Shown: positions 43,979-59,038, counted from the first letter of the stretch. The stretch is 64,000 nt of DNA from Elusimicrobiales bacterium (GCA_041665305.1 JBAYJD010000008.1:9209-73208), one strand, 5' to 3'. Notes: generated from the sequence alone by a model not told the origin. Program-made: numbers and translations.

Positions 43979-44281
43979 GTCATTTCCTCCATCGAACCGC
44001 AGTCAGTCGTTTTACCGCGCAAATATTATATACCCACCAGAGTCCTGCGGCCAGGACTTTAGGCCTATTCTATGCAAGGAATTAGACCTAACAAAACGAT
44101 CCTGCGGCTGAAGAAGAAACTGAAAGCGGAGCGCTGCTTTTATCCCTTTATCGAGCCGCTTCCGGTCTTCACCGAGGTTTCGCCGGCGTTTGGTATCCTT
44201 GAAACGAAGATGTCGCCGTCCAAAATCTATCAGGCATTGCGGTAGCGCTTAAGACTTACTAGAATTCATAGCCTCCTAACT

Positions 44282-44300
44282 CTGCCATAAAAATTGCTCC
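44282..44300 (+). promoter_or_regulatory. variant -24/-12 element, copy 1 (upstream of the sigma-54-like gene)
   Basis: CTGCCATAAAAATTGCTCC, i.e. TGCCAT-N5-TTGCT with the same spacing as TGGCAC-N5-TTGCW. Lies 39 nt before the ATG at 44339. Confidence 0.6.
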
Positions 44301-44338
44301 ATTTTCGCATAACGGCTATAATATGCGAGGGTGAGGCT

Positions 44339-45397
44339 ATGAGCAAATTCCATAAATTCGGTTTCAACCATTCCGCAAGAACTAAAGCGGCGGCTATGGG
44401 CGCTATGAAGCTGGCGCAGATGTCCGAAATGTCGGAAGGCGAATTTGAAAGCTTTCTGAAGAAGATCGAAGATAACCGTTTTTTTAAATTGCTTAAAGCA
44501 TCCGGCGCCGTCAGCCTGGCGGAATTCCCGAATGCGCGTTATGCCGCAAAAAAATACGCCGGCTACGGGCTTAAACTGTCCTCCGGAGGTCTGCCGGAAC
44601 TAGCCGACGGCAAAGGCGATCTGGTCGGCCTGATACAGGGTATAGGCCAGGAAAAATTTGAAACCTGCTTCCTGAAAGACGCGGCCATGAGTGACGTAGA
44701 GCGGGCAGAGGAATGCGACATAACCGTCAAAGACGCCGCCCGCCTGCGTGATTTCGTCAACCGCGCGTTTATACAGGCTGAATTTGAAAGCGCGCCCGAA
44801 GCTCCTGTGTCGGAAGTGTTCAGTGTCGTGGCCGGCATAGAGCTTGAAAACGGCAAGCCTCTCCTGGCGTTCTTTCACCGGGAAATCTGGAAAGGCTGTT
44901 ATAAAGTGGACGGGGAAAAACTTTCAGAAGCGTTGAAAGGCCTCCCCGCCTCTGAACAAACCGCCGTGGAAAAGCTTGTAAGGCGTATGGAACTGGCGGA
45001 CAAGCGAAAATCCACGCTTTACCGCGCGCTGGAAATAGTTATGGAGCGGCAAACCGAGTACCTGATAACCGGAGAGCCTGTGCGCAGGGCGCCGTTGCCG
45101 CAGAAAGTTCTGGCAGCGGAACTTGAAGTCCATCCCAGCGTTCTTAACCGGCTTATCTCAAATAAATCCATACAGATGCCTTGGGGCACCGAAGCGCCTA
45201 TGTCGGTGCTGCTGCCCAGCTCTAAAGCCATAAATTTAGAGCGGCTATACGCCATAGCCGTTGAAAATCCTGGTATGAACGACACTGAGTTGCGCGCCGA
45301 GCTTAAAATCCGCCACGGCGTAGAATTATCCCGCCAGTCCATAGTGCAATACCGCAAAGATTTATCATTGTCCAGGAATACTTCCAGCACGCTGTAA
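44339..45397 (+). CDS. short divergent sigma-54 (RpoN)-like factor
   Basis: The C-terminal half aligns by eye with RpoN. Pre-HTH region KRKSTLYRALEIVMERQTEYL. HTH LPQKVLAAELEVHPSVLNRLISNKSIQMPWG (compare MHESTISRVT..KY..TP.G). RpoN-box-like SRQSIVQYRKDL (compare ARRTVAKYR). N-terminus MKLAQMSEMSEGEFESFLKKIEDN resembles region I. About 352 aa against the usual ~450-500. Confidence 0.65.
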   Translation: MSKFHKFGFNHSARTKAAAMGAMKLAQMSEMSEGEFESFLKKIEDNRFFKLLKASGAVSLAEFPNARYAAKKYAGYGLKLSSGGLPELADGKGDLVGLIQGIGQEKFETCFLKDAAMSDVERAEECDITVKDAARLRDFVNRAFIQAEFESAPEAPVSEVFSVVAGIELENGKPLLAFFHREIWKGCYKVDGEKLSEALKGLPASEQTAVEKLVRRMELADKRKSTLYRALEIVMERQTEYLITGEPVRRAPLPQKVLAAELEVHPSVLNRLISNKSIQMPWGTEAPMSVLLPSSKAINLERLYAIAVENPGMNDTELRAELKIRHGVELSRQSIVQYRKDLSLSRNTSSTL

Positions 45398-45412
45398 AAC
45401 CCACTGTTGGGT

Positions 45413-45445
45413 TTCAAAATGAAAGCATTTATCTCAAAATGAGAT
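45413..45445. promoter_or_regulatory. enhancer-like repeat pair upstream of the lanthipeptide operon
   Basis: TCAAAATGA at 45414 and 45434 (20-bp phasing), ~100 bp upstream of the -24/-12 element at 45532. Confidence 0.5.
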
Positions 45446-45531
45446 GATGTTTGCTTCTTTTCTACTCCCCTGCCTCCGCAGATTTCCTGATTTCCCCAAT
45501 AGAAACGCATAAAATCGTCCAGTACATCCAT

Positions 45532-45550
45532 CTGCCATGAAAATTGCTCC
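45532..45550 (+). promoter_or_regulatory. variant -24/-12 element, copy 2
   Basis: CTGCCATGAAAATTGCTCC. Lies 46 nt before the lanA1 ATG. Confidence 0.6.
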
Positions 45551-45595
45551 ATAGAAGGTGTAGGCGGTCAAAACAAGCTAAGGAGAACGAACCAA

Positions 45596-45688
45596 ATGAC
45601 TAAAGTACTTGAACTGCAGAAACTGGAAACCGGATCAGAGGGCGAGACCCGCTTGGGCAGTTGGATCAGCAACAGCTGCGGGCAATAG
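45596..45688 (+). CDS. class III lanthipeptide precursor (30 aa), absent from the ORF track
   Basis: MTKVLELQKLETGSEGETRLGSWISNSCGQ. RBS aaggag. Leader VLELQ motif. Core S-x-x-S-x-x-C. Confidence 0.8.
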   Translation: MTKVLELQKLETGSEGETRLGSWISNSCGQ

Positions 45689-45724
45689 TGAGTGTGCCGA
45701 TATTAAACAATAGGAGAAAATAAA

Positions 45725-45826
45725 ATGAACACGATACTTGAGTTGCAGAAACTGGAAGTAAAGTCGGAAAACGAGACTCGCGGGGGAAGCTGGATCAGCA
45801 ACTGCTGCGGCGGGCAGAACGAATGA
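45725..45826 (+). CDS. class III lanthipeptide precursor (33 aa), absent from the ORF track
   Basis: MNTILELQKLEVKSENETRGGSWISNCCGGQNE. RBS aggag. Leader ILELQ motif. Core SWISNCC. Confidence 0.8.
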   Translation: MNTILELQKLEVKSENETRGGSWISNCCGGQNE

Positions 45827-45838
45827 GCGGTAGGATAA

Positions 45839-45872
45839 CTCCGGAGGTGGGGAGATTCGGCCACCTCCGGAG
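45839..45872 (+). terminator. strong hairpin between precursor genes and lanKC (attenuator or mRNA stabiliser)
   Basis: Perfect 12-bp stem ctccggaggtgg / ccacctccggag with a 10-nt loop. No clear U-tract. Confidence 0.5.
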
Positions 45873-45889
45873 CGGATTGTTAAGTTCGG

Positions 45890-48556
45890 GTGGGTAATGA
45901 TATGAATAGCGCAAACAACTTGAATTACTACCTGTTCGCAGACAAACGGTTCTATGAGCCCATGGATTATTGCGTGGTAAATGAGGGCGATTATTTTGAT
46001 TTCGTCCGAAGCCAGGCTGATGCGGAATGGAAGTTTGTCAGAAGCGGTATCTGGATAAACTGTATATACCTTAAACATACGATGCCTCTTCAGGGCTGGA
46101 AAATACATTTGTCGGCGACTCATTCGGATTCTGAAGGCATTTTCAGCGCGGCGGCAGAGTTTCTTATGGCGAACAAGGTGACTTTTAAGTTCCTGTTAGA
46201 CAAAAAAACATTGGCGATAACCAATTCAAAAGGCTGGTCTCGCGGCGCTTCCGGGAAATTTATGACGGTGTATCCGACGGATCCGGAGCACTGCAAGTGG
46301 CTGCTGGAAAAACTGCATTCACTGACGGCGGATTTTTGCGGCCCGTATATCCTCTCTGATATGCGTTATAAAGACAGCAAAGTCCTGTACTACAGATATG
46401 GCGGATTCAGGCCGAATTTACGGCTTGATGTGAATGGGAAACGTATCCCGGTGCTGGTTTCCCCTGATGGAAAAGAGGAGGCCGATGTGCGGCCGCCGTA
46501 TTACCGTCTCCCCGGATGGGTGGATGAGATATTCCCGAAGAAGAATACAAATGAGTCTGGTGGCGGATTGAATAACGGGAGATATGCAGTTGAGAGATCT
46601 CTGCATTTCTCCAATACAGGCGGGATATATATCGCCTATGACAATATCGGGAAAAAAAGAGTTGTGCTGAAAGAGGCGCGTGCGCATGTCAACGCGTTCG
46701 CGGAAAATGTGGACGCCGCCAGAATGCTTAAGAGGGAGTATGATATCCTGAAAAAAGTCGGGAACTGCGGCATCGCGCCGGAGCCGGTTGAATTATTCAG
46801 GGAATGGGAGCACCTTTTCCTGGCGGAAGAATATCTGGAGGGTTATATCACGCTTCACGCTTTCGCCGCGCAGAACAGTATTCTGCTGGAGGCGCGCCCT
46901 ACCGAAGAGAAGGTTAAATCCTACCTGGAAAAATATATCGCAATTTTCAGAAAACTCGCGGGAATTATTGAGGCCCTTCATTCCCGGAATATCATATTCG
47001 GGGATTTTTCGGTCAATAATGTCCTGGTCAATCCCGCCACGCTGGATATAAAAATTATCGACCTGGAAGGGGCGCTTGTGGAGGGCGAGGAGGAAGCTTA
47101 TAAACTTTTTACACGCGGGTTTGCCGCCGTCGAGCAGGTCAAGGGGGCGGCGCCTACGCGGGAAAGCGATTATTACGCATTCGGCGCGATAATGCTGTAT
47201 ATGCTGACGCATATAAACGGGATTCTGGATTTAAAGCCTGATGCCGGAACTGAAGCATTGCAGATGGTGGGCCGGGATTTTGGCATACCTGTAAAGTTGA
47301 GAAGGATTATAAATACCCTCATGCACTCCGATCCCGCGAAGCGGCGGGGCCCGGGTGTTTTGCGCGATCAGAAGCAGGAAACTGCTTTAAGGAAGACATG
47401 CGCGGTCAGATTGTCCGCAGCTGCTCCCCGGTTGTCCAGGAAGTACATTACTGATACCGTGCGGTCGGCATGCAGCTTTATTGAATCGAGCGCGGACTAC
47501 GCCAGGAAAGACAGGCTCTTTCCCGCAGACCCGGAAATTTTTGAAACGAATCCGCTCAGTCTTGCGCATGGGGCCGTAGGGGTTCTTTATACATTATCAA
47601 AACTCGGACGCAAGCCTGCTCCCGAAATGCTGCAATGGGTGCGCCAGCATGAAATTTCCGGCAAAAATTGTCCGCCCGGCTTATATCCGGGAATGTCCGG
47701 CATAGCCTGGGGACTGCTTGAGCTTGGCGATAAGGCTGGCGCCGAGGCTGTGTTCGGTAAAACATTCAATTCCCCGCTTTTAGCTGTTTCTTCATCGCTG
47801 TATACCGGCCTGGCCGGTTGGGGGATGACCAATCTTAAGTTCTGGCTGGCCACCCGCAAGGAAATTTACCTGGACAATGCCAAAAAGGCGGGGGAAACAT
47901 TGCTTGATTCCGCGCGCAACGATTCTCACGGTGCGCACTGGCCTGATCAGGCCGGCAAAGTGCCTATCGGGCTGGCGCACGGAGCGGGAGGAATAGGTCT
48001 TTTCCTGCTGTATCTTTACGCGGCCACCGGCAATCAAAAATACCGGCAAAAAGCCGTGGAGGCATTGGATCACGACATCGCTTATGCCGATGCGTTCGGA
48101 AACGGTAATATGGCCTGGGCGAAGACAGCCGGAGAGAACGGGGCGCTTTACCCTTACTGGGAATACGGCAGCGCCGGTATCGGAATTGCCTGCCTGCGCT
48201 ATTTCAGCGTGTTAAAGGAACCTAAGTACATGAAACTTGTGGAAAAGATATATGAAAGCTGCGCGACAAAATATGCGATTTTCCCAGGAAGAAATATGGG
48301 CATGGCAGGTCTGGGCGAGTTTCTGCTTGACGCTTATGCCGTGACAAAAGACGTAAAATACCTCAATAGCGCGCACAGTGTCGCAAGCGGATTCAAACGT
48401 TTTGCGATACGAAGCCCAAAAGGCGTCGCGTTCCCCGGCGACGGTCTGGCACGGATAAGTTGTGATTACGCCGCCGGGATGAGCGGGATCATACTGTTCC
48501 TCGACCGGCTGGTGTCAGGCCGGCCTGCGGATTTTATGCTTGATGAATTGCTTTAA
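45890..48556 (+). CDS. class III lanthipeptide synthetase (LanKC: lyase-kinase-cyclase)
   Basis: Central kinase-like VVLKEARAH, FGDFSVNNVLVN, IIDLEGA. C-terminal LanC-like GxxG repeats (SLAHGAVG, GMSGIAWG, GLAGWG, GLAHGAGG). The Zn-ligand positions read WEYGSAG and GRNMGMAG rather than WCxG and CHG, as expected for class III. Start is GTG 45890 or ATG 45902. Confidence 0.85.
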   Translation: MGNDMNSANNLNYYLFADKRFYEPMDYCVVNEGDYFDFVRSQADAEWKFVRSGIWINCIYLKHTMPLQGWKIHLSATHSDSEGIFSAAAEFLMANKVTFKFLLDKKTLAITNSKGWSRGASGKFMTVYPTDPEHCKWLLEKLHSLTADFCGPYILSDMRYKDSKVLYYRYGGFRPNLRLDVNGKRIPVLVSPDGKEEADVRPPYYRLPGWVDEIFPKKNTNESGGGLNNGRYAVERSLHFSNTGGIYIAYDNIGKKRVVLKEARAHVNAFAENVDAARMLKREYDILKKVGNCGIAPEPVELFREWEHLFLAEEYLEGYITLHAFAAQNSILLEARPTEEKVKSYLEKYIAIFRKLAGIIEALHSRNIIFGDFSVNNVLVNPATLDIKIIDLEGALVEGEEEAYKLFTRGFAAVEQVKGAAPTRESDYYAFGAIMLYMLTHINGILDLKPDAGTEALQMVGRDFGIPVKLRRIINTLMHSDPAKRRGPGVLRDQKQETALRKTCAVRLSAAAPRLSRKYITDTVRSACSFIESSADYARKDRLFPADPEIFETNPLSLAHGAVGVLYTLSKLGRKPAPEMLQWVRQHEISGKNCPPGLYPGMSGIAWGLLELGDKAGAEAVFGKTFNSPLLAVSSSLYTGLAGWGMTNLKFWLATRKEIYLDNAKKAGETLLDSARNDSHGAHWPDQAGKVPIGLAHGAGGIGLFLLYLYAATGNQKYRQKAVEALDHDIAYADAFGNGNMAWAKTAGENGALYPYWEYGSAGIGIACLRYFSVLKEPKYMKLVEKIYESCATKYAIFPGRNMGMAGLGEFLLDAYAVTKDVKYLNSAHSVASGFKRFAIRSPKGVAFPGDGLARISCDYAAGMSGIILFLDRLVSGRPADFMLDELL

Positions 48557-48566
48557 GGAGAATCCA

Positions 48567-50117
48567 ATGTTTAAGAATATGCGGCTTATTGTTCGGCCTT
48601 ATACAACCTCGTTTACCCTCGCATTGGCGGGCGTGGTCGCTATGGATGCGGTCATGAGCCTGCTCAATCCGCTTTTATTGAAATACATATTTGATGAGGG
48701 AGTGATAAAAAAGGATTTCAGGCTGTTTATTGTGGTTACTGTCGGGTTTATGATCCTTGCGACCTTATTCCGGTTGTTCTCTTTATGGAACAACCTTTAC
48801 GTGCAGGATCTGAAAAACAGAATACTTAAACGGCTTATAGGAAGCATGCTGGAAAGCTACTATAAAATGCCGTATATACAGGTCATGAAGAATAAAACCG
48901 GCTATTATACCTCAAGGATTTATGACGAGCCGCTGAGCGCCTCATCCACGGCGATAGATCTCGCTTTCGCGGTATGCCCGGCCGCTGTTTCGTTTCTTGT
49001 GGCGTTTGGGGTTGTTGTTTTCTTGTCGATCAAAGCCACGTTTGCGCTGGTGCTTACGGTGCCGTTCCTTATAATGCTCGCAAATAAATACCATTCCGAG
49101 ATCAAGCAGCATTCCCGCGACGAAAAAGAGGGGGAGGGCGAGTTGCGCGGCGTTATAACCGGTTCTGCGGAATCATATCGTACCGTCAACCTGTTCGGCC
49201 TGCATTCCGCGGTGCTGTCAAAAATTAACGAGAAGTTCGAAAAGTACACGACAAGTCTTAATGCCCGTGTCAGAAACAGCGCAAAACATAACACTTATGG
49301 CGCTATTTTCATGTCCTACGGCGAAATGCTGGTTATAATCGTCTGCGGATACGCGATTTTGAAAGGGGAGATGAGTTTCGGGGGATTCATGGCTTTTATG
49401 AACGCATTCTGGCTTGCCGTCGGCAATATGAGAACGCTTGTGCAGAAAATACCTGAATTCTCACGGAACTCAATGGCGTTGCATCGGTTGGCGGAGTTCG
49501 GCATGCCAGCTTCAGAAGCGGCTGGTACCGGCGGTGGAACCGGGATCGGCGCAATTACACTTGAAAACGTGGGGTTCAGCTATGGTGATAAGCAAGTATT
49601 TTCAAACCTGAGTTTCAGCGCGGGCAAAGGCGAAAAATTGCTGCTAAGCGGCAAGAACGGCTCCGGAAAATCCACGGTGGCGAATATGCTCTCCGGATTC
49701 CTCGCGCCGGATAATGGGACCGCGCGGATTCTGGGCGTTGAAAAGACCAGCGCCTGCGTCTCCCCGCATCACTTCGCGCCTGGCACATTACGCGACAACC
49801 TGAAATTCGATAGCCATACGGACGAACAGCGCCGATACCTGAATGGCGTGCTGGCGGACTTCAAGCTGACGGAAAGTCTTGATAAGAGCCCTGATGCGCT
49901 GTCCGCCGGGCAGAAGAAAAAGGCCGAGATCGCTATGGGGTTGATGAAAGACGCTGAATTGTTTCTGTTCGACGAACCTCTCGCCAACGTGGACGTGGAG
50001 AGCAAGCCGATAATAATGGAGCATATCTTTAACCGGACCAAAGATAAAATCCTGGTAGTTGTAATGCATGGGGATGATGAATTCCGTGGGCAGTTTACCA
50101 GGATGGTGAGTTTATGA
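48567..50117 (+). CDS. ABC transporter, fused permease/ATPase (peptide exporter)
   Basis: Six N-terminal TM helices. Walker A GKNGSGKST, signature LSAGQKKK, Walker B LFLFDEP. RBS aaggag. Confidence 0.85.
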   Translation: MFKNMRLIVRPYTTSFTLALAGVVAMDAVMSLLNPLLLKYIFDEGVIKKDFRLFIVVTVGFMILATLFRLFSLWNNLYVQDLKNRILKRLIGSMLESYYKMPYIQVMKNKTGYYTSRIYDEPLSASSTAIDLAFAVCPAAVSFLVAFGVVVFLSIKATFALVLTVPFLIMLANKYHSEIKQHSRDEKEGEGELRGVITGSAESYRTVNLFGLHSAVLSKINEKFEKYTTSLNARVRNSAKHNTYGAIFMSYGEMLVIIVCGYAILKGEMSFGGFMAFMNAFWLAVGNMRTLVQKIPEFSRNSMALHRLAEFGMPASEAAGTGGGTGIGAITLENVGFSYGDKQVFSNLSFSAGKGEKLLLSGKNGSGKSTVANMLSGFLAPDNGTARILGVEKTSACVSPHHFAPGTLRDNLKFDSHTDEQRRYLNGVLADFKLTESLDKSPDALSAGQKKKAEIAMGLMKDAELFLFDEPLANVDVESKPIIMEHIFNRTKDKILVVVMHGDDEFRGQFTRMVSL

Positions 50118-50126
50118 TGCGGTTTT

Positions 50127-50205
50127 CTCATTTTGAGAAAAGAGATCCCATAAGTTTTCATTGATGGGGTTTGTCAAAATGAGAGTAAGTATCTTAAAAT
50201 GAAAC
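50127..50205. promoter_or_regulatory. enhancer-like repeat array upstream of the second precursor operon
   Basis: Palindrome TCTCATTTTGAGA (50127-50139), TTTCATTGA (50157), TCAAAATGA (50174), TTAAAATGA (50194). The last two are 20 bp apart. The array ends ~87 bp before the promoter. Confidence 0.55.
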
Positions 50206-50280
50206 ATTGTTGTCTGGCTTTTAAATCCTTTGCATCCCGGACTGTTGAATTTTCCCAATGAAGGCAATTAAATTTGATAA

Positions 50281-50299
50281 CTGCCATAAAAATTGCTCC
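50281..50299 (+). promoter_or_regulatory. variant -24/-12 element, copy 3
   Basis: CTGCCATAAAAATTGCTCC. Lies 43 nt before the ATG at 50342. Confidence 0.6.
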
Positions 50300-50341
50300 G
50301 TAGTGGGTGTAAGTGCAGAAAACCACTAAAGGAGAACTTAA

Positions 50342-50509
50342 ATGAACGCAATGCAGATGAACCTTAACAATACGGACGAAAATAACTTCACTTCCGGGTT
50401 CAACCGTGCGCCTGAGTTGGAGGATGTGTTTATGTCTGGTTTCAACCGCGCGCCAGAGCTGGAAGAGAGTTTTACTTCCGGTTTCAATCGCGCTCCCGAA
50501 CTGGCCTAA
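50342..50509 (+). CDS. repeat-containing RiPP precursor (55 aa), absent from the ORF track
   Basis: MNAMQMNLNNTDENNF-TSGFNRAPELEDVF-MSGFNRAPELEESF-TSGFNRAPELA. RBS aaaggag. Three 14-codon units with SGFNRAPEL invariant while 8 of its 9 codons differ synonymously between units. Confidence 0.8.
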   Translation: MNAMQMNLNNTDENNFTSGFNRAPELEDVFMSGFNRAPELEESFTSGFNRAPELA

Positions 50510-50521
50510 TCTGGTTATGAT

Positions 50522-50553
50522 CCGGGCCGGGGACAGTAAAGGTCCCGGCCCGG
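50522..50553 (+). terminator. GC-rich hairpin between precursor and radical SAM gene
   Basis: ccgggccgg(g)gac / gtcccggcccgg, a 12-bp stem with one bulge. No U-tract. Confidence 0.5.
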
Positions 50554-50566
50554 TTCCGGAGCTTAT

Positions 50567-51703
50567 ATGACAAAACCATTTTTCTCTTATTCCACTCCAC
50601 GAATAAACAGCCTTGTATTCAAGCTGGTGGACTATTGCAATCAAGGTTGCACTTATTGCTACCGTGAAAACGACAAAGAGCGTCCAGTGCGCATAATGTC
50701 AGATGAACTGATAGAAACTACTATCGTGAAATATATAGATTTTCTTAAGTCCAAAGGAAACGCCCGCAGCGTAGTATATCTGATCTGGCATGGCGGGGAG
50801 CCATTGCTGGCAGGAATCAGTAAGTTCAGGACGATAATGGAAATACAGGCGCAGCTTGCGGCCAGGTATGAGGTCGGTTTTGTGAATTCCGTGCAAACCA
50901 ATGGGGTCTATATTGATGAGGAATGGGCAAAGTTCTTCAACGAAAACAGGTTCCTGGTCGGGGTGAGCCTGGACGGCCCTAAGCAGATTCATGATATCTA
51001 CAGAAAAAACAAAGGCGGAGTTTCCACCTTCGCGGAGACGATGCGCGGGATCAAATTGCTGCAAGCGCACAAAATAAAAACTAATCTTATCGGTGTTGTA
51101 ACCAATGAGAGCGCTCCGCACGCCGATATGATGTATGAGTTTTTCAGGGATTTTGGCGTGCAGGACATAGACCTCATCCCTTGTTTTGATTATAACGATC
51201 CGCTTACCTTGTCGCCGGAGCTGTACCGCGCTTTTATGGTTACGATTTTTAAGCGGTGGCGTTCGGACGGATTTGCGCCGCTGAGAATAAGGTTCCTTTC
51301 CGATGTTTTGAAAAAGATCTCGGTGCTGCGTTCCGGCGGTTGCGCTACTATAGGCTGCGAGCTTATGGGCGGCTGCGGGCAGAACTGGTCCATAGGCGTG
51401 GAAGGGGAAGTATATCCGTGCGAGTGCCTCACCCCGATAAAGCGCATGGAGCTGGGAAATATTATGGAATCTTCTTTTGAAGGGCTCATGTCCTGCGGCG
51501 CTTTCACTAACGTGAAATCGGAGAACAATGATATCGCGCAAGATTGCCGCGACTGCGACGTGCTGGCGGTATGCCGGGCAGGCTGCCTCAACAGGCGTCT
51601 TAAGGATTATAAACTTGACGGGAAAAGGGACCCTTACTGCCTTGCCCGCCGTGACGTGATCAAACTTGCCCTGGAGGATGCGTATGCAATCCCGGCTAAA
51701 TAA
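50567..51703 (+). CDS. radical SAM/SPASM-domain peptide maturase
   Basis: CNQGCTYC (CxxxCxxC), WHGGEPLL. C-terminal Cys clusters GGCATIGCELMGGCGQ...YPCEC and CRDCDVLAVCRAGC typical of SPASM auxiliary clusters. Confidence 0.85.
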   Translation: MTKPFFSYSTPRINSLVFKLVDYCNQGCTYCYRENDKERPVRIMSDELIETTIVKYIDFLKSKGNARSVVYLIWHGGEPLLAGISKFRTIMEIQAQLAARYEVGFVNSVQTNGVYIDEEWAKFFNENRFLVGVSLDGPKQIHDIYRKNKGGVSTFAETMRGIKLLQAHKIKTNLIGVVTNESAPHADMMYEFFRDFGVQDIDLIPCFDYNDPLTLSPELYRAFMVTIFKRWRSDGFAPLRIRFLSDVLKKISVLRSGGCATIGCELMGGCGQNWSIGVEGEVYPCECLTPIKRMELGNIMESSFEGLMSCGAFTNVKSENNDIAQDCRDCDVLAVCRAGCLNRRLKDYKLDGKRDPYCLARRDVIKLALEDAYAIPAK

Positions 51704-52877
51704 AAACGCCTGGTTATTGTTGTCAGCCGTAGCCATTTCATCCGTAGGGGATTGGCTCAATATCCTTGCCCTGATTACTGTGTTTAGCAAGGCGTATGGG
51801 GCGGCAAGCGTGGCATTCCTGATGGCGATGCGGGCTGTTCCCGGCGTCCTGCTGGGGCCGTGGGTTGCCAATCACATAGATCGCTTTCAGAAAACACGCG
51901 TACTCATTTTTTTAAGCGTCGCTCAGGCAGCCCTGGCGTTAACATTGGGCGTTCTCTCTGACCGTTGGGCGCTTCTCGGCGCGGCGGCGGCGCTTTCCAC
52001 GCTTAATTTGTTCTCCGCCCCTTTGATCAAGGCTCTCCTCCCCACGGTATGCAACTCCGCATCGCTTAGCCGCGTGAATTCGTATTTCGCATCTATACAG
52101 TCAAGTTCCTATGTTCTGATACCGCTTCTTAGCGGGGTGCTGATATCAATCTTTGGCCCGGCGGCATGTTTTAATATAGATGCGGCGACATTTGTCGTCT
52201 TTGGCGTAATGATCGCAGCTGTGCATGTTTCTGATGCGGGGCGTGTCGGCGTTCAGGGGGGGGCGGTAGAGTCCGGGAGTCTCTTCAGGGATCTGCTAAA
52301 TACGCCTGATCTAAAGCGGACATTGTTTGCTTTTGCAGTGGCGGGATTTTCACTGGGGACGATCTACTCGGTGGAGATTTCTTTTTTCGCCAAATACCTG
52401 AATGTAGATCCTCGCGGTTACGGAAGCTTTGTGGCGATCGCCGGCGCGGGTGTGTTGATGGGATCCCTGCTCTGCGGGCGGTTTACGGCTTCGGCAACGC
52501 TTGAGCGGGTGTTTGTAGCGGGGCTTGCCTTATTCGGGACAATGACGGTGCTCTTTTCTTTTAACCGCAGTTTGGTTGTGGCGATCGGGTTGATTATGCT
52601 GTCAGGATTCGGAGAGGGCCTGTTTTCCGTTTCAGGCACCATCCTCGTCCAATTACAATCGCGCGCGGACCGGTTGGCCGGAAATTTTACACTGCTTGGC
52701 GTTTTGTCCAAGAGCTTCAGTCTTTTTGCGATGCTTGTAGCCGCAATGTTTATGGATTACATGCAGCCGGCAGGATTGTTGCTTGTGGCGGGGCTGGTTG
52801 CATTGGGTGTAGCTGCGGTATGGGGCGTAACAAAAGCTCAGGTCAGCAATGTTGCTGCGCCAAAATGCGCCGAATGA
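51684..52877 (+). CDS. MFS transporter (putative peptide exporter)
   Basis: 12 predicted TM helices. N-terminus LLLSAVAISSVGDWLNILAL typical of the MFS_3/EntS-like group. Overlaps the rSAM 3' end. RBS ggagg. Confidence 0.75.
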   Translation: MQSRLNKNAWLLLSAVAISSVGDWLNILALITVFSKAYGAASVAFLMAMRAVPGVLLGPWVANHIDRFQKTRVLIFLSVAQAALALTLGVLSDRWALLGAAAALSTLNLFSAPLIKALLPTVCNSASLSRVNSYFASIQSSSYVLIPLLSGVLISIFGPAACFNIDAATFVVFGVMIAAVHVSDAGRVGVQGGAVESGSLFRDLLNTPDLKRTLFAFAVAGFSLGTIYSVEISFFAKYLNVDPRGYGSFVAIAGAGVLMGSLLCGRFTASATLERVFVAGLALFGTMTVLFSFNRSLVVAIGLIMLSGFGEGLFSVSGTILVQLQSRADRLAGNFTLLGVLSKSFSLFAMLVAAMFMDYMQPAGLLLVAGLVALGVAAVWGVTKAQVSNVAAPKCAE

Positions 52878-52904
52878 ATGCGTTTTGGTGAAAAAGGGCT
52901 ATCG

Positions 52905-52983
52905 GCTCATTTTGAGATAGTAGTTTTGTCTAATCTTCATTGAAAGGATTTTCAAAATGAAAATGTTTATATCAGAATGATAG
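52905..52983. promoter_or_regulatory. enhancer-like repeat array upstream of the third precursor operon
   Basis: GCTCATTTTGAGA (52905), CTTCATTGA (52935), TCAAAATGA (52952), TCAGAATGA (52972). Same order and near-identical spacing as the array at 50127-50205. Confidence 0.55.
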
Positions 52984-53069
52984 GTTTTGTTTGTTCTTAA
53001 ATCCCTGAAAATATCGTCAGGCAGTCATTTCTCCAATGGGGGCGTATGAAATAGGTTGGTTGTCCGCCC

Positions 53070-53088
53070 CTGCCATAAAAATTGCTCC
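53070..53088 (+). promoter_or_regulatory. variant -24/-12 element, copy 4
   Basis: CTGCCATAAAAATTGCTCC. Lies 40 nt before the ATG at 53128. Confidence 0.6.
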
Positions 53089-53127
53089 GTAGGAGGCGTA
53101 AGCAGACATAATATACGGAGGATACAA

Positions 53128-53304
53128 ATGAAACGGATAACGATCAAAATAGCAATAGCGGGGATATCGGCTTTGTTTATAATGGCAGTTTTACTGAAGC
53201 CGCAGCACTTGACTGGCGGCGAGGCCAGCAAAAAGCAGACCGTAGTTCACTATACCAGCGTTGGAGTGTTTCCCAATTCGCCGCTGTTCTATGCGGAGAA
53301 CTAA
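53128..53304 (+). CDS. small peptide (58 aa) with hydrophobic N-terminus, candidate precursor or secreted peptide
   Basis: MKRITIKIAIAGISALFIMAVLLKPQHLTGGEASKKQTVVHYTSVGVFPNSPLFYAEN. RBS acggagg. The longer track ORF from 53056 would begin inside the promoter element. Confidence 0.6.
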   Translation: MKRITIKIAIAGISALFIMAVLLKPQHLTGGEASKKQTVVHYTSVGVFPNSPLFYAEN

Positions 53305-53442
53305 GCAAAGACCCACGGTGGATATAGGTCCAAAGGCCCTTACAAACTTATGAGTCACAGACTACACTATTGTATGATTCTTGACAGCTCGGGGGATTGG
53401 CCTCGGAATATCTGCGACCGGACCTTGATCATGTGTATCCAG

Positions 53443-53487
53443 GGAAAGCAGAATCGAATTTGCTTTTCCTCTTTTAATTGAAAAGCA
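53443..53487 (+). promoter_or_regulatory. two mutually exclusive hairpins (terminator/antiterminator-like)
   Basis: Hairpin 1 is ggaaagca / tgcttttcc (53443-53469), followed by tctttt. Hairpin 2 is tgctttt / aaaagca (53461-53487). Both use the same tgctttt segment. Confidence 0.4.
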
Positions 53488-53529
53488 GTTTCTGAAATGG
53501 CAGAATACAGCAGATAAGGAGAATGCGAT

Positions 53530-53730
53530 ATGACGAACAAAGATAAAGTGATTGTATCGTTCCTGGTGTCCATCGGGATATTTTCTTCCGCCCAAGCGGT
53601 TCGCTATGTTAAGACTCTTGAAATTAGTGAGAAGAACTCCATGATATCCGTGGCCAAACTATCTAATTCCGGCATAGTTCTTTGTGAAGATTCTACCAGT
53701 CGTTCCGGTTTAGATAATCATAAAGGATAA
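53530..53730 (+). CDS. small protein (66 aa) with signal-peptide-like N-terminus, translationally coupled to the radical SAM gene
   Basis: MTNKDKVIVSFLVSIGIFSSAQA... RBS aaggag. Its TAA overlaps the ATG of the next gene (TAATG). Confidence 0.55.
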   Translation: MTNKDKVIVSFLVSIGIFSSAQAVRYVKTLEISEKNSMISVAKLSNSGIVLCEDSTSRSGLDNHKG

Positions 53731-54629
53731 TGGATGGGCACGCTTTGGGGCAGACCGTCGATATTCGTAAGCTAGGAATAGTTGTCGGTACCGCATGCAA
53801 TTTTAATTGCAGCCATTGCTTGATCAAGAAGGAAGACAGGCGTGAACGACTGTCTCTGAAAGAGGTTCGGCTATTGTGCGATACGGTGGCCAGATATCGT
53901 CCGAAGTCGATTTTGTTCACCGGAGGGGAACCGACCTTTTGGATCAAGGAAATAAACGAAATTATTTCCTCCCACCCTTGCCCTGAAAACCTTAAAATCA
54001 CTTTGACCACTAATGGCCATTTCGCAGGGTCGGTCTCTTTGGCGAAGAAGGTGCTCTCCTCGTTTACCAGACTTGATTATGTGCAATTGTCGTATGATGT
54101 TTTCCATAAAATCTTCCTGTCGTTTTCAAAAGCTAAAAATCTTCATTCAGCGTGTACGGAGTTGCGGGTCGGTTTCAGCGCGATTCTAACGATGTCGTCT
54201 CCGTTGGACCTGCTTCTCGTTAAACAGTTGCGAAGTTTCGGGCGGTTCAAGATAGGGGTGCAAAAGGTCGCTAGTATTGGAGAGGCGAAGAGAAACGGCA
54301 TTCGGTTCATCTTCCCATGCTTTGACGAGAAAGTACTCTCTAAATATTGTCCCAACAGGAACAGTCTCGGGTATATTTGCGGACGCGGATTCTCGATCTG
54401 TTGTGCGGAACTGGCCTTTAATAATTCTATGCCCGGGGTGTTTCACTCAACGCTGGGTGAACATTTGGCCAGTCCTTTATACGGATTGATGCGGAAACAC
54501 AATTTTGCGGAACTGATGAAAATATTGCGGGTACCTAAAAAGTCCCTGCTGCCGGATCATTCCTCGGAGTGTGTGCTGTGCGACCATATTTTTAAAAATG
54601 CCAGGAGGAAAGTGCGGTTGACGCCGTAA
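53730..54629 (+). CDS. radical SAM protein with C-terminal Cys-rich (twitch/SPASM-like) region
   Basis: CNFNCSHC (CxxxCxxC), FTGGEPTF. C-terminal CPNRNSLGYICGRGFSICC and CVLC. Confidence 0.8.
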   Translation: MDGHALGQTVDIRKLGIVVGTACNFNCSHCLIKKEDRRERLSLKEVRLLCDTVARYRPKSILFTGGEPTFWIKEINEIISSHPCPENLKITLTTNGHFAGSVSLAKKVLSSFTRLDYVQLSYDVFHKIFLSFSKAKNLHSACTELRVGFSAILTMSSPLDLLLVKQLRSFGRFKIGVQKVASIGEAKRNGIRFIFPCFDEKVLSKYCPNRNSLGYICGRGFSICCAELAFNNSMPGVFHSTLGEHLASPLYGLMRKHNFAELMKILRVPKKSLLPDHSSECVLCDHIFKNARRKVRLTP

Positions 54630-54636
54630 ATCGTGT

Positions 54637-55332
54637 ATGAAATCAAACCCCCGTCTTGTTCAGAAGGAAAAAGGAAAAATAACCTATCAAATGCCGGATT
54701 TTACCCGGCTTAATACTTCGGCGATAGATAAGCTTGCCTGGCCGAAGGAAATCCCGGTCTTGTGGCTGAAATACTACGAAAACCTCGACGGCTGCTACGA
54801 GGCGTTGGATAAAAGGATATCCCGCAAATATATCGTGCGGGTAATATACTCCGCCGATAAGAAAGATATTCATTTGAAGGGGAGAAAGGAATCTGCCTGC
54901 GCGATAAAAGCCAGGGAATCGCTTACAACGGCGGAATTATTGGCACTATATCTTGAAACACATGCTAAATCCTTTATCGCGCCGTGGGCCGGACAACTTG
55001 ATAGTAAATATATAGACGAGGTTTCCTCGTTCATTAAAGAAGATCTGCCGATCTCAAAGTCGTTGAGCTTCTTTAAGGATAAATCCCCAGTGGGATTGGT
55101 GCTCCTGACGGAGTTAGGCAGCGGAGCTGGGCTTATTTCATGGATATGGTTCGCGCCGTCTTTAAGCATTGCTGAAAGACGGAAAGCGCACAATCTCTTT
55201 GCCGCCTGGCTGAGGAACGGGAAATATCCGCAAATTAAAAGTGTCGTTCATTCTTTCAACCTGCGCTCTAACAGATTCTTTATAAAAATGGGATTCCATA
55301 CTCAATGCATTGCTATCACCAGACGAAGCTGA
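54637..55332 (+). CDS. GNAT-family acetyltransferase-like protein (tentative)
   Basis: C-terminal pattern GLVLLTEL...ISWIWFAP...RRKAHNLFAAWL...NLRSNRFFIKMGF resembles GNAT motifs A/B. The N-terminal half is unassigned. Confidence 0.5.
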   Translation: MKSNPRLVQKEKGKITYQMPDFTRLNTSAIDKLAWPKEIPVLWLKYYENLDGCYEALDKRISRKYIVRVIYSADKKDIHLKGRKESACAIKARESLTTAELLALYLETHAKSFIAPWAGQLDSKYIDEVSSFIKEDLPISKSLSFFKDKSPVGLVLLTELGSGAGLISWIWFAPSLSIAERRKAHNLFAAWLRNGKYPQIKSVVHSFNLRSNRFFIKMGFHTQCIAITRRS

Positions 55333-56711
55333 TCTTTCTGCTTCTGGCCGCTTGCGGCGTTCTCTGCGGTTGCCGGAAGGCGGAACAGCGGACGGATACA
55401 TGGACAGTGTTGCTCAGTGACCTTCCCGTACGCCTGTTTGTCGCTGACGCCGGGCTTAATGGGACTTTTTACCTTTTAAAACAGACGCATGAGCCGCTTT
55501 TTAGGCAGGATGACGGGGAAATTTTTTCTTCTCGGCTTTTGGAGAAGTGGAGCAGGGATATCCGGTCTTCTGAATATCTTTTCTGTCCCGACACCTCTTT
55601 GCGTTTTGACGCAGATAACACTTTTTCAATGGCATTCTTTTATAAATATATACGGAAAACCGCTAAGGCGTTCGACCAGGGGGCGGAGGTTGAAAAACAT
55701 GGTGAATGCGTTAGGATAAAATTGGGAAGTCACTCGAATTTCCTGGCTTACCTGTCTCTTTTCGAAAACGCTCCTACTTTGAAAAGGACGGAAAAGATAG
55801 AGGTCGGACTCGGCGCTTTTTCCGTTGAAACATTGTCCGCCGAAAAGGTCGTGCTTAAAAGAAAGCAGAGAGTTTCCAATGGCTATAACGCGATAGTGTT
55901 CCACCAGTATAAGGGCGGCGGTGACCCAAATTTACAGAATAGGCAGATAAGTGATTTCAATAATATCCCATCATTCGAGATACCGGAATGGGTAAAGAAA
56001 GATTATCGGCATTTTGATAGTCCTATACTCCGGTCGATAAGCCTTATAATAAATTACCCCGATAAGGCGGTCCGGAAAGCGGTCTATAACTGTCTTAACT
56101 ATGATTCCCTTCGGCGCGCCTATGTGCCGCGGCGAAAAAACTTTTATGATATATGCAATATACTTCCCGTTGGGGTTCCCGGTGCCGAAGCCGGGCCTCC
56201 GAGGCAGGAATGCTATGGTATAGCGAGAATAAACCGTCATTTTGAATTGACATTCCTGAACCTTGCCTATAATAATGATAAAACGCTGAAGGAAGTGTTA
56301 TCGGCTTTTCATAAAAGAACGGGGATAAAGATCGTCGTCAGGACATATCCTGATAACCAGATCGATGCGGCGCTTCTTCAATCCCCACGCCGGTATAATC
56401 TGGCGATAGTGGTTATGGATGCTGTTCGTCCTAATCATGAAGCGTTCTTTGATTATTTAATCAAGAAAAACGGATACTTTGATACCGATAATCCCGCACT
56501 AACACACTTGTATGAAAAAATGTTGAAAGAACCGGATGAGGAAAAGAAAAATAGTTTAGCGAAAGTCATAGCAGAAAAGCTGGATTCCGAAGCGCTGGTT
56601 TTGCCTCTGTATCAGAATGTGGCGACTTTCTATTATCCGAGAAACATAAAAAGTATTATTCTCGGCAGAGGTTTTATCGAATATCCAGAGGTTGCGGAGT
56701 TCAGATGGTAA
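55305..56711 (+). CDS. lipoprotein, solute-binding protein family 5-like (peptide/oligomer binding)
   Basis: Lipobox-like LLAACGVLCGC. Size and LLKQTHEPLF / periplasmic-binding fold pattern. Overlaps the kinase gene start by 7 nt. Confidence 0.5.
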   Translation: MHCYHQTKLIFLLLAACGVLCGCRKAEQRTDTWTVLLSDLPVRLFVADAGLNGTFYLLKQTHEPLFRQDDGEIFSSRLLEKWSRDIRSSEYLFCPDTSLRFDADNTFSMAFFYKYIRKTAKAFDQGAEVEKHGECVRIKLGSHSNFLAYLSLFENAPTLKRTEKIEVGLGAFSVETLSAEKVVLKRKQRVSNGYNAIVFHQYKGGGDPNLQNRQISDFNNIPSFEIPEWVKKDYRHFDSPILRSISLIINYPDKAVRKAVYNCLNYDSLRRAYVPRRKNFYDICNILPVGVPGAEAGPPRQECYGIARINRHFELTFLNLAYNNDKTLKEVLSAFHKRTGIKIVVRTYPDNQIDAALLQSPRRYNLAIVVMDAVRPNHEAFFDYLIKKNGYFDTDNPALTHLYEKMLKEPDEEKKNSLAKVIAEKLDSEALVLPLYQNVATFYYPRNIKSIILGRGFIEYPEVAEFRW

Positions 56712-58864
56712 AAATTATAGGCCGGGCTTTTTCTTATAACTGGAAATACTACAGCGCGGCGGTGGCCGTGTTTGTGGTTTTCTGGCAGATGTTTTCCGTG
56801 TTCTCTGCCGTGCGCGTAGCTGATGATAATCTGCTAACCGCCATGCGGCAGAATGCGGCCTATTTTGAAAAAGCATTTCTTAAAGGTGATGTGTTTGAGA
56901 CTCAGCGCATAATGTGGCGCATAAAGAACGACAATATAAAGCACATAACATTCCACCCCACTGAGTTTAACGGCAGTAAGTGGATATTTAAAGAGGCCAT
57001 AATCGGGAATATTTACGACAGACCTCGCGCGCAGCTAACGTGCAATGTGCCTTTTATATCAAATGGCGCAGTGCTTGGCCAGCTGGAATATGTTATAGAT
57101 CTGGTGGATGTCAACGCTGTCGTCTTCGGTGAGAACTATATTTTATTTATAACCATAGTGGCTTTTTTTATGGGCCTTTTGTTTCTGTCCAATGTCGGGG
57201 CTATTAAAACTATTTTCAGCATAGAGCGCTGTGTTACAGAAACAAACGCTCTGGTCGATGCCGGTAAACACGCCGACATTCAGGATTCTATACAACGCAG
57301 CATCCAGTTGCTGCCGCAAAGTTTGCGCGATACACCATTCGCCGTGTTGATAAGCGGGTTGGCGGAAGTGCTGAAAAAAGCCTCCCGTCTTGAAAGTGAC
57401 CTTGCTGTTTCAAAAGCCACATCTGATATGGCGGTGCAAGTGGCGCATGACATTCGGTCGCCGCTGGCGGCGTTGGATACAGCGCTGAATAAAACTGATC
57501 AGCTCCCGGAACAACAGCGCATTATGGTGCGCCATGCGGTGAACCGGATACGCGATATCGCCAACAATCTCCTTGAAAAGAACCGGCAGCAGGCCAAAAC
57601 CTCTTCAGTGGCCATATCCCAGCCCACTGATGCCCGCGAAGCTCAGGAAACGCGCCTGCTTTCAAGCGCTATAGACCCGGTTATAACCGAGAAACGCCTG
57701 CAATTTGAATCAAAGCCGGGAATAAACATTGATTTTGAGCTGACAAAGGAATCTTACGGCTTGTTCGCTAAAATACAGCCGGTGGAATTCAGGCGCATAA
57801 TTTCAAATCTTGTGAATAATGCCGTTGAAGTGTTGGGCGATCAAGGCAAGGTCTCCGTAGGCTTGGGCCAGGATGCCGGGAATATTGTTTTAACTGTCGC
57901 CGATAACGGCAAAGGCATTCCGGCTGAAATACTGGCGAAACTCGGCCAGAGGGGAGAAACGCACGGGAAGGCTGGCGGATCGGGTCTGGGGCTTTTCCAT
58001 GCAAGAACAACAGTGGAAAGTTTGGGTGGCAGTCTTGCGATAGCTTCCGAAGTAGGCAAAGGCACGACGATTACAATAAAATTGCCCAGGGCGGAGGCTC
58101 CAAATAATTTTGTGCCTGTGCTTGAACTTGTTCCCGGCCGGCCCGTGGTAGTCTTGGATGATGACGCTACAATACACCAGATCTGGGATGGCCGGTTTGA
58201 GTCCGCCAGGGTTCAGGAGCGCAATATCGAAGTAATTCATTTCAGCGAGCCGGATAAACTGCGCGAATGGGTTAAAACCAACACGGCAAAGGCCGAAAAA
58301 GCGGTTTATCTGTTTGACTATGAGTTGATCGGTTATAAAGAAACGGGACTTAGCCTTGCCGAAGAGCTGGGGATATGCGGCACGACAATATCTGTGACCA
58401 GCCGTTACGACGAGAAACGCATAATTGATGAGTGCAAGCGTCTTAAAGTGCGGATGATCCCCAAGGGGCTGGCAAGCCTTGTGCCGATAGCCATCCAAAA
58501 GCCTGATGCAAAACCGGAAGCAGTGCCTCCCTCCGGCCAGGTAGACGCCGTTTTAGTTGATGATGATAAATTGGCCCGCATGAGTTGGGAAATGGTCGCC
58601 AAGGCAAAAGGCGTAAACCTGGTTGTCTTCGACAATCCGGGCGATTTCCTCGCCCGTATAGAGGAATTCCCCAAAGAGACGCCTGTTTATCTTGATTCCG
58701 AGCTGGACGACGACCAGGAAAACGGCGTTAAAGGCCAGAATATAGCCGTGGATCTGCACAACAAAGGCTATGCCGATATCACGCTTGAGACCGGCCACAT
58801 GCCGGAAGATTTCGCCCACTTGCCCTGGCTTAAAGTGATAGACAAAACTCCGCCCTGGAGTTAA
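56705..58864 (+). CDS. membrane sensor histidine kinase with two C-terminal receiver-like domains
   Basis: TM, ~130-aa periplasmic loop, TM. H-box VAHDIRSPLAAL. NLVNNAVEV, DNGKGIP, GGSGLGLFHA. Then VVVLDDD...LFDYEL and AVLVDDD...YLDSEL modules. Confidence 0.85.
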   Translation: MVKIIGRAFSYNWKYYSAAVAVFVVFWQMFSVFSAVRVADDNLLTAMRQNAAYFEKAFLKGDVFETQRIMWRIKNDNIKHITFHPTEFNGSKWIFKEAIIGNIYDRPRAQLTCNVPFISNGAVLGQLEYVIDLVDVNAVVFGENYILFITIVAFFMGLLFLSNVGAIKTIFSIERCVTETNALVDAGKHADIQDSIQRSIQLLPQSLRDTPFAVLISGLAEVLKKASRLESDLAVSKATSDMAVQVAHDIRSPLAALDTALNKTDQLPEQQRIMVRHAVNRIRDIANNLLEKNRQQAKTSSVAISQPTDAREAQETRLLSSAIDPVITEKRLQFESKPGINIDFELTKESYGLFAKIQPVEFRRIISNLVNNAVEVLGDQGKVSVGLGQDAGNIVLTVADNGKGIPAEILAKLGQRGETHGKAGGSGLGLFHARTTVESLGGSLAIASEVGKGTTITIKLPRAEAPNNFVPVLELVPGRPVVVLDDDATIHQIWDGRFESARVQERNIEVIHFSEPDKLREWVKTNTAKAEKAVYLFDYELIGYKETGLSLAEELGICGTTISVTSRYDEKRIIDECKRLKVRMIPKGLASLVPIAIQKPDAKPEAVPPSGQVDAVLVDDDKLARMSWEMVAKAKGVNLVVFDNPGDFLARIEEFPKETPVYLDSELDDDQENGVKGQNIAVDLHNKGYADITLETGHMPEDFAHLPWLKVIDKTPPWS

Positions 58865-59034
58865 CCCTTTAAATCCTTCTCAAGCCGGGACAGGCAATCC
58901 ATGATATCCTGCCCCGCTTCTTTCATAAGGGCAAGCAATTCCAGCTTTTTCTCAAGCGTGCAGGTCTTGAACATTTCCGCGATTGTTTTAAGGCTCGTGC
59001 ATTGCGAGCGTATCTTGTGAAGCGGCTTTTCCAT
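58861..59034 (-). CDS. small helical protein, possible Hpt-like phosphorelay component (speculative)
   Basis: MEKPLHKIRSQCTSLKTIAEMF... has a His in an HxxxxS-like context resembling Hpt helices. Sits between the kinase and the regulator. Start ambiguous (59034-59079). Confidence 0.3.
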   Translation of the reverse strand: MEKPLHKIRSQCTSLKTIAEMFKTCTLEKKLELLALMKEAGQDIMDCLSRLEKDLKG

Positions 59035-59038
59035 TTTG

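Follow-up and report, generated by a model that had tools for sequence, protein, structure and literature searches.

Can a sigma-54-type promoter system do without the second G of the -24 GG dinucleotide, and if so, which factor reads it? This question is raised by a 64-kb stretch of DNA from an Elusimicrobiales bacterium, a metagenomic contig (ENA ERZ27249449 k141_1616754) that we call the window and whose coordinates are counted from its first base. A 19-nt element, CTGCCATRAAAATTGCTCC, occurs in it four times: in front of a gene for a compact sigma-54-like protein (copy 1) and in front of three putative peptide natural-product operons (copies 2-4). The GG dinucleotide of the -24 element is normally invariant in sigma-54-dependent promoters, and all four copies carry GC in its place. 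We consider it probable that the four 19-mers are the -24/-12 promoter cores of a private regulon, read by the compact factor encoded in the same cluster, in which a glutamine (Q333) matches the G-to-C change, and that copies 2-4 are driven by an activator. The system looks like a naturally evolved private sigma/promoter pair, in which factor and promoters have changed together at a residue/base pair considered invariant.

The 19-nt element and the sigma-54-like protein

The four copies (44282, 45532, 50281 and 53070) are exact matches on the plus strand, while the number expected by chance is 0.02 and none of 100 shuffles reached four. An earlier note on this DNA had held that the repetition could not be due to chance, and these figures bear it out. 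A fifth site is absent from the window, even when 3 mismatches are allowed, and a weight matrix derived from the family returns just the four copies at 12 bits or more. Within the same limits (up to 3 mismatches, or at least 12 bits), no such element lies in front of the activator, kinase and protease genes of the window. The start codons that follow copies 1-4 (44339, 45596, 50342 and 53128) lie 38, 45, 42 and 39 nt from the end of the element and are preceded by AGGAG-type ribosome-binding sites (Shine-Dalgarno); the good ribosome-binding sites described earlier are thus present, and the distances of 39-46 nt given with them become 38-45 nt.

Sigma-54 promoters combine TGGCAC and TTGCW elements 5 nt apart, with GG and GC separated by 10 nt. 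The window element can be written TGCCAT-N5-TTGCT. At 4 of 4 copies its spacing agrees exactly with TGGCAC-N5-TTGCW, from which it departs by a C at the second G of the GG and a T for C at the last base of the hexamer; the alignment and both mismatches had been correctly described. The elements and their geometry are established. Transcription from sigma-54 promoters starts ~11-13 nt downstream of the -12 GC and depends strictly on an activator ATPase. From this geometry, the starts of copies 2-4 are predicted at 45558-45560, 50307-50309 and 53096-53098. A generic sigma-70 scan of 44000-54000 gave 17 sites, against 11.2 +/- 3.8 expected, and none was convincing at copies 2-4. An antisense canonical promoter was also considered, since TGCCA is the reverse complement of TGGCA, and was rejected: there is no minus-strand TTGC at the right spacing, and the upstream flanks are not conserved.

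The gene after copy 1 encodes a protein of 352 residues, whose resemblance to sigma-54 by sequence is confined to the C-terminal ~130-190 residues. In hhalign, residues 220-351 were aligned with residues 333-474 of Escherichia coli RpoN (95.7% probability, C-terminus only), and the only significant sequence matches in PDB are the sigma-54 chains of Aquifex and E. coli. The AlphaFold model of the full-length protein (predicted local distance difference test, pLDDT, 74.6) has an extra-long helix (ELH), a helix-turn-helix (HTH) and a three-helix RpoN domain. The top 28 Foldseek matches of this model are all sigma-54 chains, down to E 6e-9; it aligns along the whole of these chains, with template modelling (TM) scores of just 0.36-0.42. 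The C-terminal sigma-54 DNA-binding region (PF04552) was found in 88 of 88 family members searched, and the sigma-54-type character of this half of the protein is established. The RpoN box LSRQSIVQYR aligns onto ARRTVAKYR of E. coli (454-462), and therefore Q333 is the equivalent of R456, and R455 is kept. Of the two arginines that mark an RpoN box (E. coli R455 and R456), SRQSIVQYR thus has the first. The codon of Q333 is CAG (45335-45337), one transition from CGG.

Copies 2-4 have further sequences in common. Paired TCAAAATGA dyads, 20 bp apart, are found ~95-118 bp upstream of the -24 element at each of them, and extra inverted copies of the dyad lie further upstream at copies 3 and 4 (Table 1); the earlier note had missed them. 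Enhancer sites for the AAA+ activator are typically located 80-150 bp upstream of sigma-54 promoters. The predicted dyads of copies 2-4 fall in this range, and copy 1, unlike copies 2-4, has no upstream dyads. TTYYCCAAT boxes are present at 45492, 50251 and 53029; of the positions first reported for them, 50251 was right, and 45491 and 53028 were off by one. A sequence common to copies 3 and 4 had also been noticed, and TTAAATCC was found upstream of them at 50221 and 52997. The similarity said to run on downstream of the element at the three precursor operons (TTGCTCC-rTAG-nrGG-yGTA-rGC) is real at copies 2-4, in the form of a block TTGCTC(C/T)GTA(G/T)nGGGyGTArGC from ~-11 to +8 (45550-45570, 50299-50320 and 53088-53108). 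Sigma-54 promoters do not usually have such a conserved block after the -12 element.

Copy 1 overlaps a sigma-70-like promoter, TTGCTC-N17-TATAAT, with a perfect TATAAT at 44317-44322, an overlap that had also been missed. This promoter scores under the threshold of the generic sigma-70 scan. In 9 upstream regions of paralogous sigma-like genes TATAATATGC is invariant, and it is kept in the 3 of these in which a tRNA gene replaces the -24/-12 element. Given this geometry and the conservation of TATAATATGC, including where the -24/-12 element is absent, the sigma gene is probably expressed from a sigma-70-type promoter. Copy 1 itself probably serves the autoregulation, positive or negative, of the sigma-like factor; occlusion of the -35 region by the factor would predict repression.

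Table 1. Features of the window, with coordinates counted from its first base.
Feature	Coordinates	Strand	Description and basis
Copy 1, GC-type -24/-12 element	44282..44300	+	Before the sigma-54-like gene; class A, without upstream dyads; exact match, weight matrix
Sigma-70-like promoter over copy 1	44294..44322	+	TTGCTC (3/6 to TTGACA), 17-nt spacer, TATAAT; geometry, conservation
Compact sigma-54-like protein	44339..45397	+	352 amino acids, RpoN box LSRQSIVQYR; Pfam Sigma54_DBD (PF04552), E 7e-11
Candidate upstream activator sites of copy 2	45414..45442	+	TCAAAATGA dyads at 45414 and 45434, ~98-118 bp upstream of the -24 element
TTYYCCAAT box between dyads and copy 2	45492..45500	+	
Copy 2, GC-type -24/-12 element	45532..45550	+	Before two lanthipeptide-type precursor genes; exact match, start-codon gap
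Operon after copy 2	45596..50117	+	Lanthipeptide-type precursors 45596-45688 and 45725-45826; RamC_N/kinase/LanC synthetase 45890-48556; ABC exporter 48540-50117
Dyad sites of copy 3	50128..50202	+	Inverted TCATTTTGA 50128, TTCATTGA 50157, TCAAAATGA 50174, TTAAAATGA 50194
Copy 3, GC-type -24/-12 element	50281..50299	+	Exact match, start-codon gap
Operon after copy 3	50342..52877	+	Three-repeat precursor 50342-50509; radical S-adenosylmethionine (SAM)/SPASM maturase 50567-51703; MFS transporter 51666-52877
Dyad sites of copy 4	52907..52980	+	Inverted TCATTTTGA 52907, TTCATTGA 52936, TCAAAATGA 52952, TCAGAATGA 52972
Copy 4, GC-type -24/-12 element	53070..53088	+	Exact match, start-codon gap
Operon after copy 4, first part	53128..58864	+	Small open reading frame (ORF) 53128-53304; purine-riboswitch-like leader; ORF 53530-53730; YydG-like radical-SAM enzyme 53730-54629
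Operon after copy 4, second part	53128..58864	+	ORF 54637-55332; solute-binding-like protein 55305-56711; sensor histidine kinase 56705-58864
Response-regulator enhancer-binding protein	59039..60400	-	Receiver, sigma-54-interaction AAA+ domain with GAFTGA at residue 208, weak Fis-type HTH; PF00158, E 7e-57

Covariation of an RpoN-box residue with a promoter base

The window was compared with 106 related loci (cited as L001 and so on), 79 from genomes and 27 from metagenomes, the relatives being all Elusimicrobia metagenome-assembled genomes (MAGs). The family of ~350-residue proteins that have only the DNA-binding domain (DBD) comprises more than 238 clusters at 90% identity, and a profile search (E<=1e-30) gave end-to-end matches to 249 representatives at 50% identity. 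In nearly all of the 106 loci the RpoN box reads LSRRS[IV]AQYR. Where the protein is at least ~60% identical to that of the window, the flanks carry TGGCAT/C-N5-TTGCT sites, and these GG-type sites precede the sigma-like gene itself, Cys-rich small peptides, radical-SAM maturases and secreted proteins. Within this set of loci, LSRQS is confined to a clade whose members share 86-92% identity with the window protein (the window itself, L001/L080, L002/L081, two L003 paralogs and L082), and TGCCAT-N5-TTGCTCC sites are confined to the loci of this clade.

The second -24 base was then counted with a matrix made neutral at this position (threshold 18 bits, non-redundant sites). In the Arg-Gln loci it is C at 15 sites, G at 0 and A at 0; in the Arg-Arg loci it is C at 0 sites, G at 120 and A at 1. 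The covariation of residue and base is established by these counts. Q333 is the sole clade-fixed substitution at an otherwise invariant site (54 of 54 Arg; 60 unique proteins of at least 60% identity). Since L002 retains Ala at the next variable position of the box, the R-to-Q change alone tracks the promoter change. The Gln-type genes are intact, under purifying selection and well diverged, with a ratio of non-synonymous to synonymous substitution rates (dN/dS) of 0.07-0.19 and dS of 0.27-0.69, and the 19-mer is kept across the lineages of the clade while its flanks drift.

The nearest Arg-Arg clade (L004, L005, L083 and L084; 77-78% identity) has homologous promoter regions. Its cores differ from those of the Gln clade just at this G/C, both at the site before the sigma-like gene and at the operon promoters. 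Copy 1 is orthologous to the GG-type site before the sister-clade gene (L083/L084), and copy 4 is homologous over ~200 bp to sister-clade GG-type promoter regions. As own-gene and operon sites each have GG orthologs in the sister clade, at least two promoter lineages have switched. The MAG CAZYFL01 holds both a Gln/GC locus (L001) and an Arg/GG locus (L005). An orthogonal pair in the sense of Liu et al. combines a substitution at R456 and a changed base at the second G with a lack of cross-recognition towards the Arg/GG pair; as the pairing of residue and base is present, and both types of pair occur in one MAG, the Gln/GC pair is a candidate for such orthogonality.

The sequences around the promoters differ between the clades as well. 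Paired TCAAAATGA dyads accompany every operon-type GC site in the related lineages (11 GC-type sites, 5 lineages). The GG-type promoters of the main clade have the same two-dyad layout with a different dyad, TTTTC-N4-GAAAA, 21 bp apart, and the centre of the dyad is 5 nt in the Gln clade versus 4 nt in the main clade; GG-type promoters of the sister clade use CCCAAAATGGG. The block that follows the -12 element is pronounced in the Gln clade and can still be seen, in weaker form, across 84 GG-type sites. In main-clade GG loci (e.g. L010 ~9830-9870, L016 and L017), TGTATAAT, the extended -10 of the divergent activator gene, lies between the dyads and the -24 element.

Bacterial enhancer-binding proteins combine an AAA+ domain carrying GAFTGA with regulatory and DNA-binding domains. 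The product of 59039-60400 has all of these, the HTH_8 match being weak (E 0.0013, under the cut-off). Of 94 evaluable loci, 65 have an ortholog of it (54-66% identity) no more than 600 bp upstream of the sigma-like gene; 53 of these orthologs are divergently oriented, and 12 share the strand of the sigma-like gene. Conserved linkage of the activator gene is thereby established. The gene order radical-SAM/binding protein/kinase also recurs in related loci, often near the sigma-like gene. We know of no target of a GAFTGA enhancer-binding protein other than a sigma-54-type holoenzyme.

Proposed mechanism and competing explanations

The residue and the base that covary here have been linked by mutagenesis. 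Liu et al. 2025 (NAR gkaf442, PMC12096077) randomised R455/R456 of E. coli sigma-54 together with the -24 hexamer. R456 normally reads the second G of the -24 GG, and its substitutions retargeted exactly that base: the preferred dinucleotide is GG for the wild type, GC for R456Y/M/W/F, GA for R456H and GT for R456L. The engineered pairs were mutually orthogonal, and orthogonal to the native system as well, while still depending on an activator. The same authors describe R456 as 100% conserved, with no other residue known in nature, and ask why evolution never explored alternatives. A private regulon of the compact factor is favoured here because a promoter-like, non-random element adjoins a gene with a sigma-54 ELH-HTH-RpoN region, and because the residue mutated there sets the preference at exactly the covarying base.

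In the mechanism that we propose, the Gln-type factor would read the TGCCAT-N5-TTGCT promoters. The phosphorylated enhancer-binding protein (59039-60400) would bind the paired TCAAAATGA dyads ~100 bp upstream of copies 2-4 and spend ATP to open the closed complex, which would turn on the three peptide natural-product operons. The operon of copy 4 ends with the partner kinase, and its expression would thus give positive feedback. Copy 1, placed on the -35 region of the sigma gene's sigma-70-like promoter and devoid of activator sites, would serve autoregulation. The earlier note had proposed a -24/-12 promoter with C for the second G, read by the sigma-like protein of the cluster and an enhancer-binding protein. 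The core of this proposal is supported by the Q at R456, by the presence of GC sites only with Gln and by the R456 mutagenesis. One qualification is that copy 1 has turned out to be a different class of site.

Several observations weigh against this mechanism. Neither Pfam, NCBIfam, hhalign and BLASTP nor a separate fold search gave the N-terminal ~160-200 residues of the protein any significant similarity to Region I or to the core-binding domain. In the Pfam search of 88 members there was no match to Region I/AID (PF00309), and none to the core-binding domain PF04963 at E<=1; the NCBIfam model TIGR02395 (rpoN_sigma) failed, its score of 42.2 bits falling short of the cut-off of 277. When the N-terminus was compared with E. 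coli by BLASTP, the E value was 22. Modelled alone, the N-terminal half is of low confidence (pLDDT 62.6) and has no significant fold match; the sigma-54 core-binding domain (2k9l) appears weakly among its hits, at E 4.1. This half is nevertheless strongly conserved across the family, with a conserved helical N-terminus. Since it has no detectable Region I or core-binding-domain similarity, sigma function is inferred, as are binding to core RNA polymerase and dependence on the activator. Moreover, R456Q was not among the engineered variants characterised in PMC12096077. The R-to-Q change in the clade is a single evolutionary event, and the covariation is to that extent unreplicated; a second Gln clade was found, and no promoters were identifiable around it. 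The evidence is strong but purely comparative, and goes back to one evolutionary switch.

The most serious rival is that the Sigma54_DBD protein is a non-sigma DNA-binding regulator (repressor, decoy or activator), with the 19-mers as its operators and transcription by another sigma factor. This agrees with the N-terminal half, in which neither sequence comparison nor fold search detected Region I or a core-binding domain, and with the sigma-70-like promoter under copy 1, whose -10 box persists in upstream regions that lack the element. However, copies 2-4 would then be left promoterless, with no convincing sigma-70-type promoter, and the GAFTGA activator gene linked in 65/94 loci would be left without a target. 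The sites retain the full -24/-12 geometry, with paired dyads ~100 bp upstream; whole sigma-54 chains are matched by the full-length model; and the N-terminal conservation just described also speaks against such a regulator. If canonical sigma-54 were the real sigma factor, the GC change should disable the promoters. We regard a non-sigma regulator as unlikely.

It is quite improbable that a standard Arg-Arg sigma-54 (canonical or paralog), encoded elsewhere in the genome, reads the elements as ordinary sigma-54 promoters with slight degeneracy, the Gln being irrelevant. All but one base fits the family GG-type consensus, and at least one MAG does hold an Arg-type paralog as well. The partition of C and G by RpoN-box type is perfect, though, the Gln clade having C at 15 of 15 sites, including the site before the Gln gene itself, and wild-type sigma-54 barely activates promoters altered at the second -24 G (PMC12096077). 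We give even less credit to the idea that the 19-mer and its downstream block act at the RNA level, as a leader or processing motif, or are a recently duplicated cassette without function of its own, despite the similarity that runs ~20 nt past the element at copies 2-4 and in related lineages. RNA-level action had been named in the earlier note as what would refute its proposal, and found no support: the RNAalifold consensus of 11 leaders (-4.6 kcal/mol) has no compensatory pair, and no Rfam family was found at the elements. A start ~12 nt after TTGC would leave most of the element untranscribed, and covariation with a protein residue is unexpected for an RNA motif. The core is also kept across lineages at dS ~0.5 while the flanks drift.

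Should the private regulon of the Gln-type factor be confirmed, it would be a natural alternative to the -24 GG/arginine rule that is treated as fixed, existing beside an Arg/GG sister system. It would show how the specificity of a sigma paralog and that of its entire regulon can move in step until both are insulated, and would supply natural orthogonal parts for synthetic biology. A blind spot would be exposed, for GG-anchored promoter matrices and three-domain rpoN models both miss the system. It would also offer a way to study how silent peptide natural-product clusters are regulated in an uncultivated phylum.

Neighbouring genes, the wider family and known systems

The precursor encoded after copy 3 (50342-50509, plus strand) has three near-identical SGFNRAPELE(D/E)(V/S)F repeats and may be a multi-core ribosomal peptide. 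The SPASM enzyme beside it best matches anaerobic sulfatase maturase and DynA-type maturases. A riboswitch-like leader separates the YydG-like radical-SAM operon from the small ORF that follows copy 4: within 53376-53470 (plus strand), a full-length match to the 2'-dG-II purine-riboswitch aptamer (RF03165), with 32 bits against a gathering score of 60 and a local E of 3e-6, is followed by a terminator-like hairpin at 53441-53470. At the equivalent position, L087 (11316-11386) has a bona fide RF03165 match (80 bits), 5' of the homologous radical-SAM gene and 3' of a GG-type promoter. A module around the sigma-like gene is recurrent in Elusimicrobia (window 53730-60400; L008, L018, L021, L024, L035, L039, L040 and L041). 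It consists of a YydG-like radical-SAM enzyme, a family-5-like solute-binding protein, a hybrid histidine kinase and an enhancer-binding protein, and may be a peptide-sensing circuit; the pairing of a binding protein with a kinase suggests that the signal is a peptide. Minus-strand tRNA-like sequence was found directly upstream of three sigma-like paralogs (L003 ~560-600, L003 ~9950-9990 and L004 ~1680-1720), and L082 has a tRNA at 1528-1600, which hints that the clusters are located at tRNA-linked insertion sites.

Variation of the RpoN box is found in the wider family. Among 354 members aligned to the profile, the R456 equivalent is R in ~325, Q in 11, H in 3, and P, C, W and S in one each; the R455 equivalent also varies (L, P, S, V, C, T and Q; profile alignment including P0205-P0352). 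A second, distant clade (~54% identity) has independently acquired LSRQSIVQYR (P0113, P0121 and P0123). P0122, a neighbour on the same contig, has LSRPSIVQYR, and P0194 has LSRCS. On the contigs of the second Gln clade and the Pro variant no recurring -24/-12 motif was found, a single GG-type candidate (TGGCGC-N5-AAGCA, L113 ~7651) being present. In the clade that lacks the first arginine (L065-L074, LS[SLA]RS), no autoregulatory site and no enriched -24 variant were found.

In the second Gln clade a histidine kinase gene precedes each sigma-like gene; after one of these sigma-like genes come an HU/IHF-like gene and an enhancer-binding protein gene. The 47-kb contig ERZ27313068 k141_8352 holds L111 (10001-11047) and L113 (3775-4848), and L110 and L114 belong to the same observation. 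It carries TraG/TrwB/TraC/TrbC, integrase and AbiE genes and looks like a conjugative element. The L110 contig terminates in a (CCTG)n repeat (1917-1949) that directly follows the stop codon of the sigma-like gene, probably an assembly end.

This wider variation suggests that the phenomenon is broader than one clade. More tentatively, and with somewhat more doubt than belief, we picture a large unannotated family of compact (~350 residues) sigma-54-like factors in Elusimicrobia and relatives, with a novel N-terminal module for core binding and activator reception and with naturally diversified RpoN boxes (Gln in two clades; His, Trp, Pro, Cys and Ser at R456; several R455 changes). Mutually insulated triads of sigma factor, promoter and enhancer-binding protein would then exert private control over peptide natural products, secreted proteins and even mobile elements. 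Such a family would mean that orthogonal sigma-54 systems exist in nature as well as by engineering, and would contradict the GG/R456 rule claimed to be universal.

Compared with canonical RpoN promoters, the window has the same -24/-12 layout and spacing, TTGC at -12 and dyads ~100 bp upstream; a GAFTGA AAA+ response regulator, a kinase and the ELH-HTH-RpoN-box C-terminal half are shared as well. It differs by C at the second G in all sites, by Gln at R456, and by a protein of 352 residues with no recognisable Region I or core-binding domain. The engineered R456 variants of Liu et al. 2025 involve the same residue and the same promoter base. However, those pairs are laboratory constructs, whereas the pair in the window is natural, uses Gln and belongs to a divergent compact family. 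Direct control of secondary-metabolite genes by sigma-54-type promoters and enhancer-binding proteins has been described (Sci Rep 2021, PMC7910581). That case concerns the housekeeping canonical sigma-54 and polyketide/non-ribosomal-peptide genes, while the window has a cluster-encoded variant sigma factor and ribosomal-peptide operons. Finally, in the part of PMC11999139 that cites Poggio et al. 2006, Cereibacter (Rhodobacter) sphaeroides is described with several sigma-54-type paralogs in one genome (RpoN1-4), promoter discrimination and a dedicated activator. The dyads and the -24 base both differ between our sister systems, which in this resemble these paralog-specific RpoN/activator pairs. 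According to the same account, discrimination in C. sphaeroides lies in the -11 position and in activator specificity, with the GG and the RpoN-box arginines kept, whereas in the window the -24 GG and the residue that reads it have both changed.

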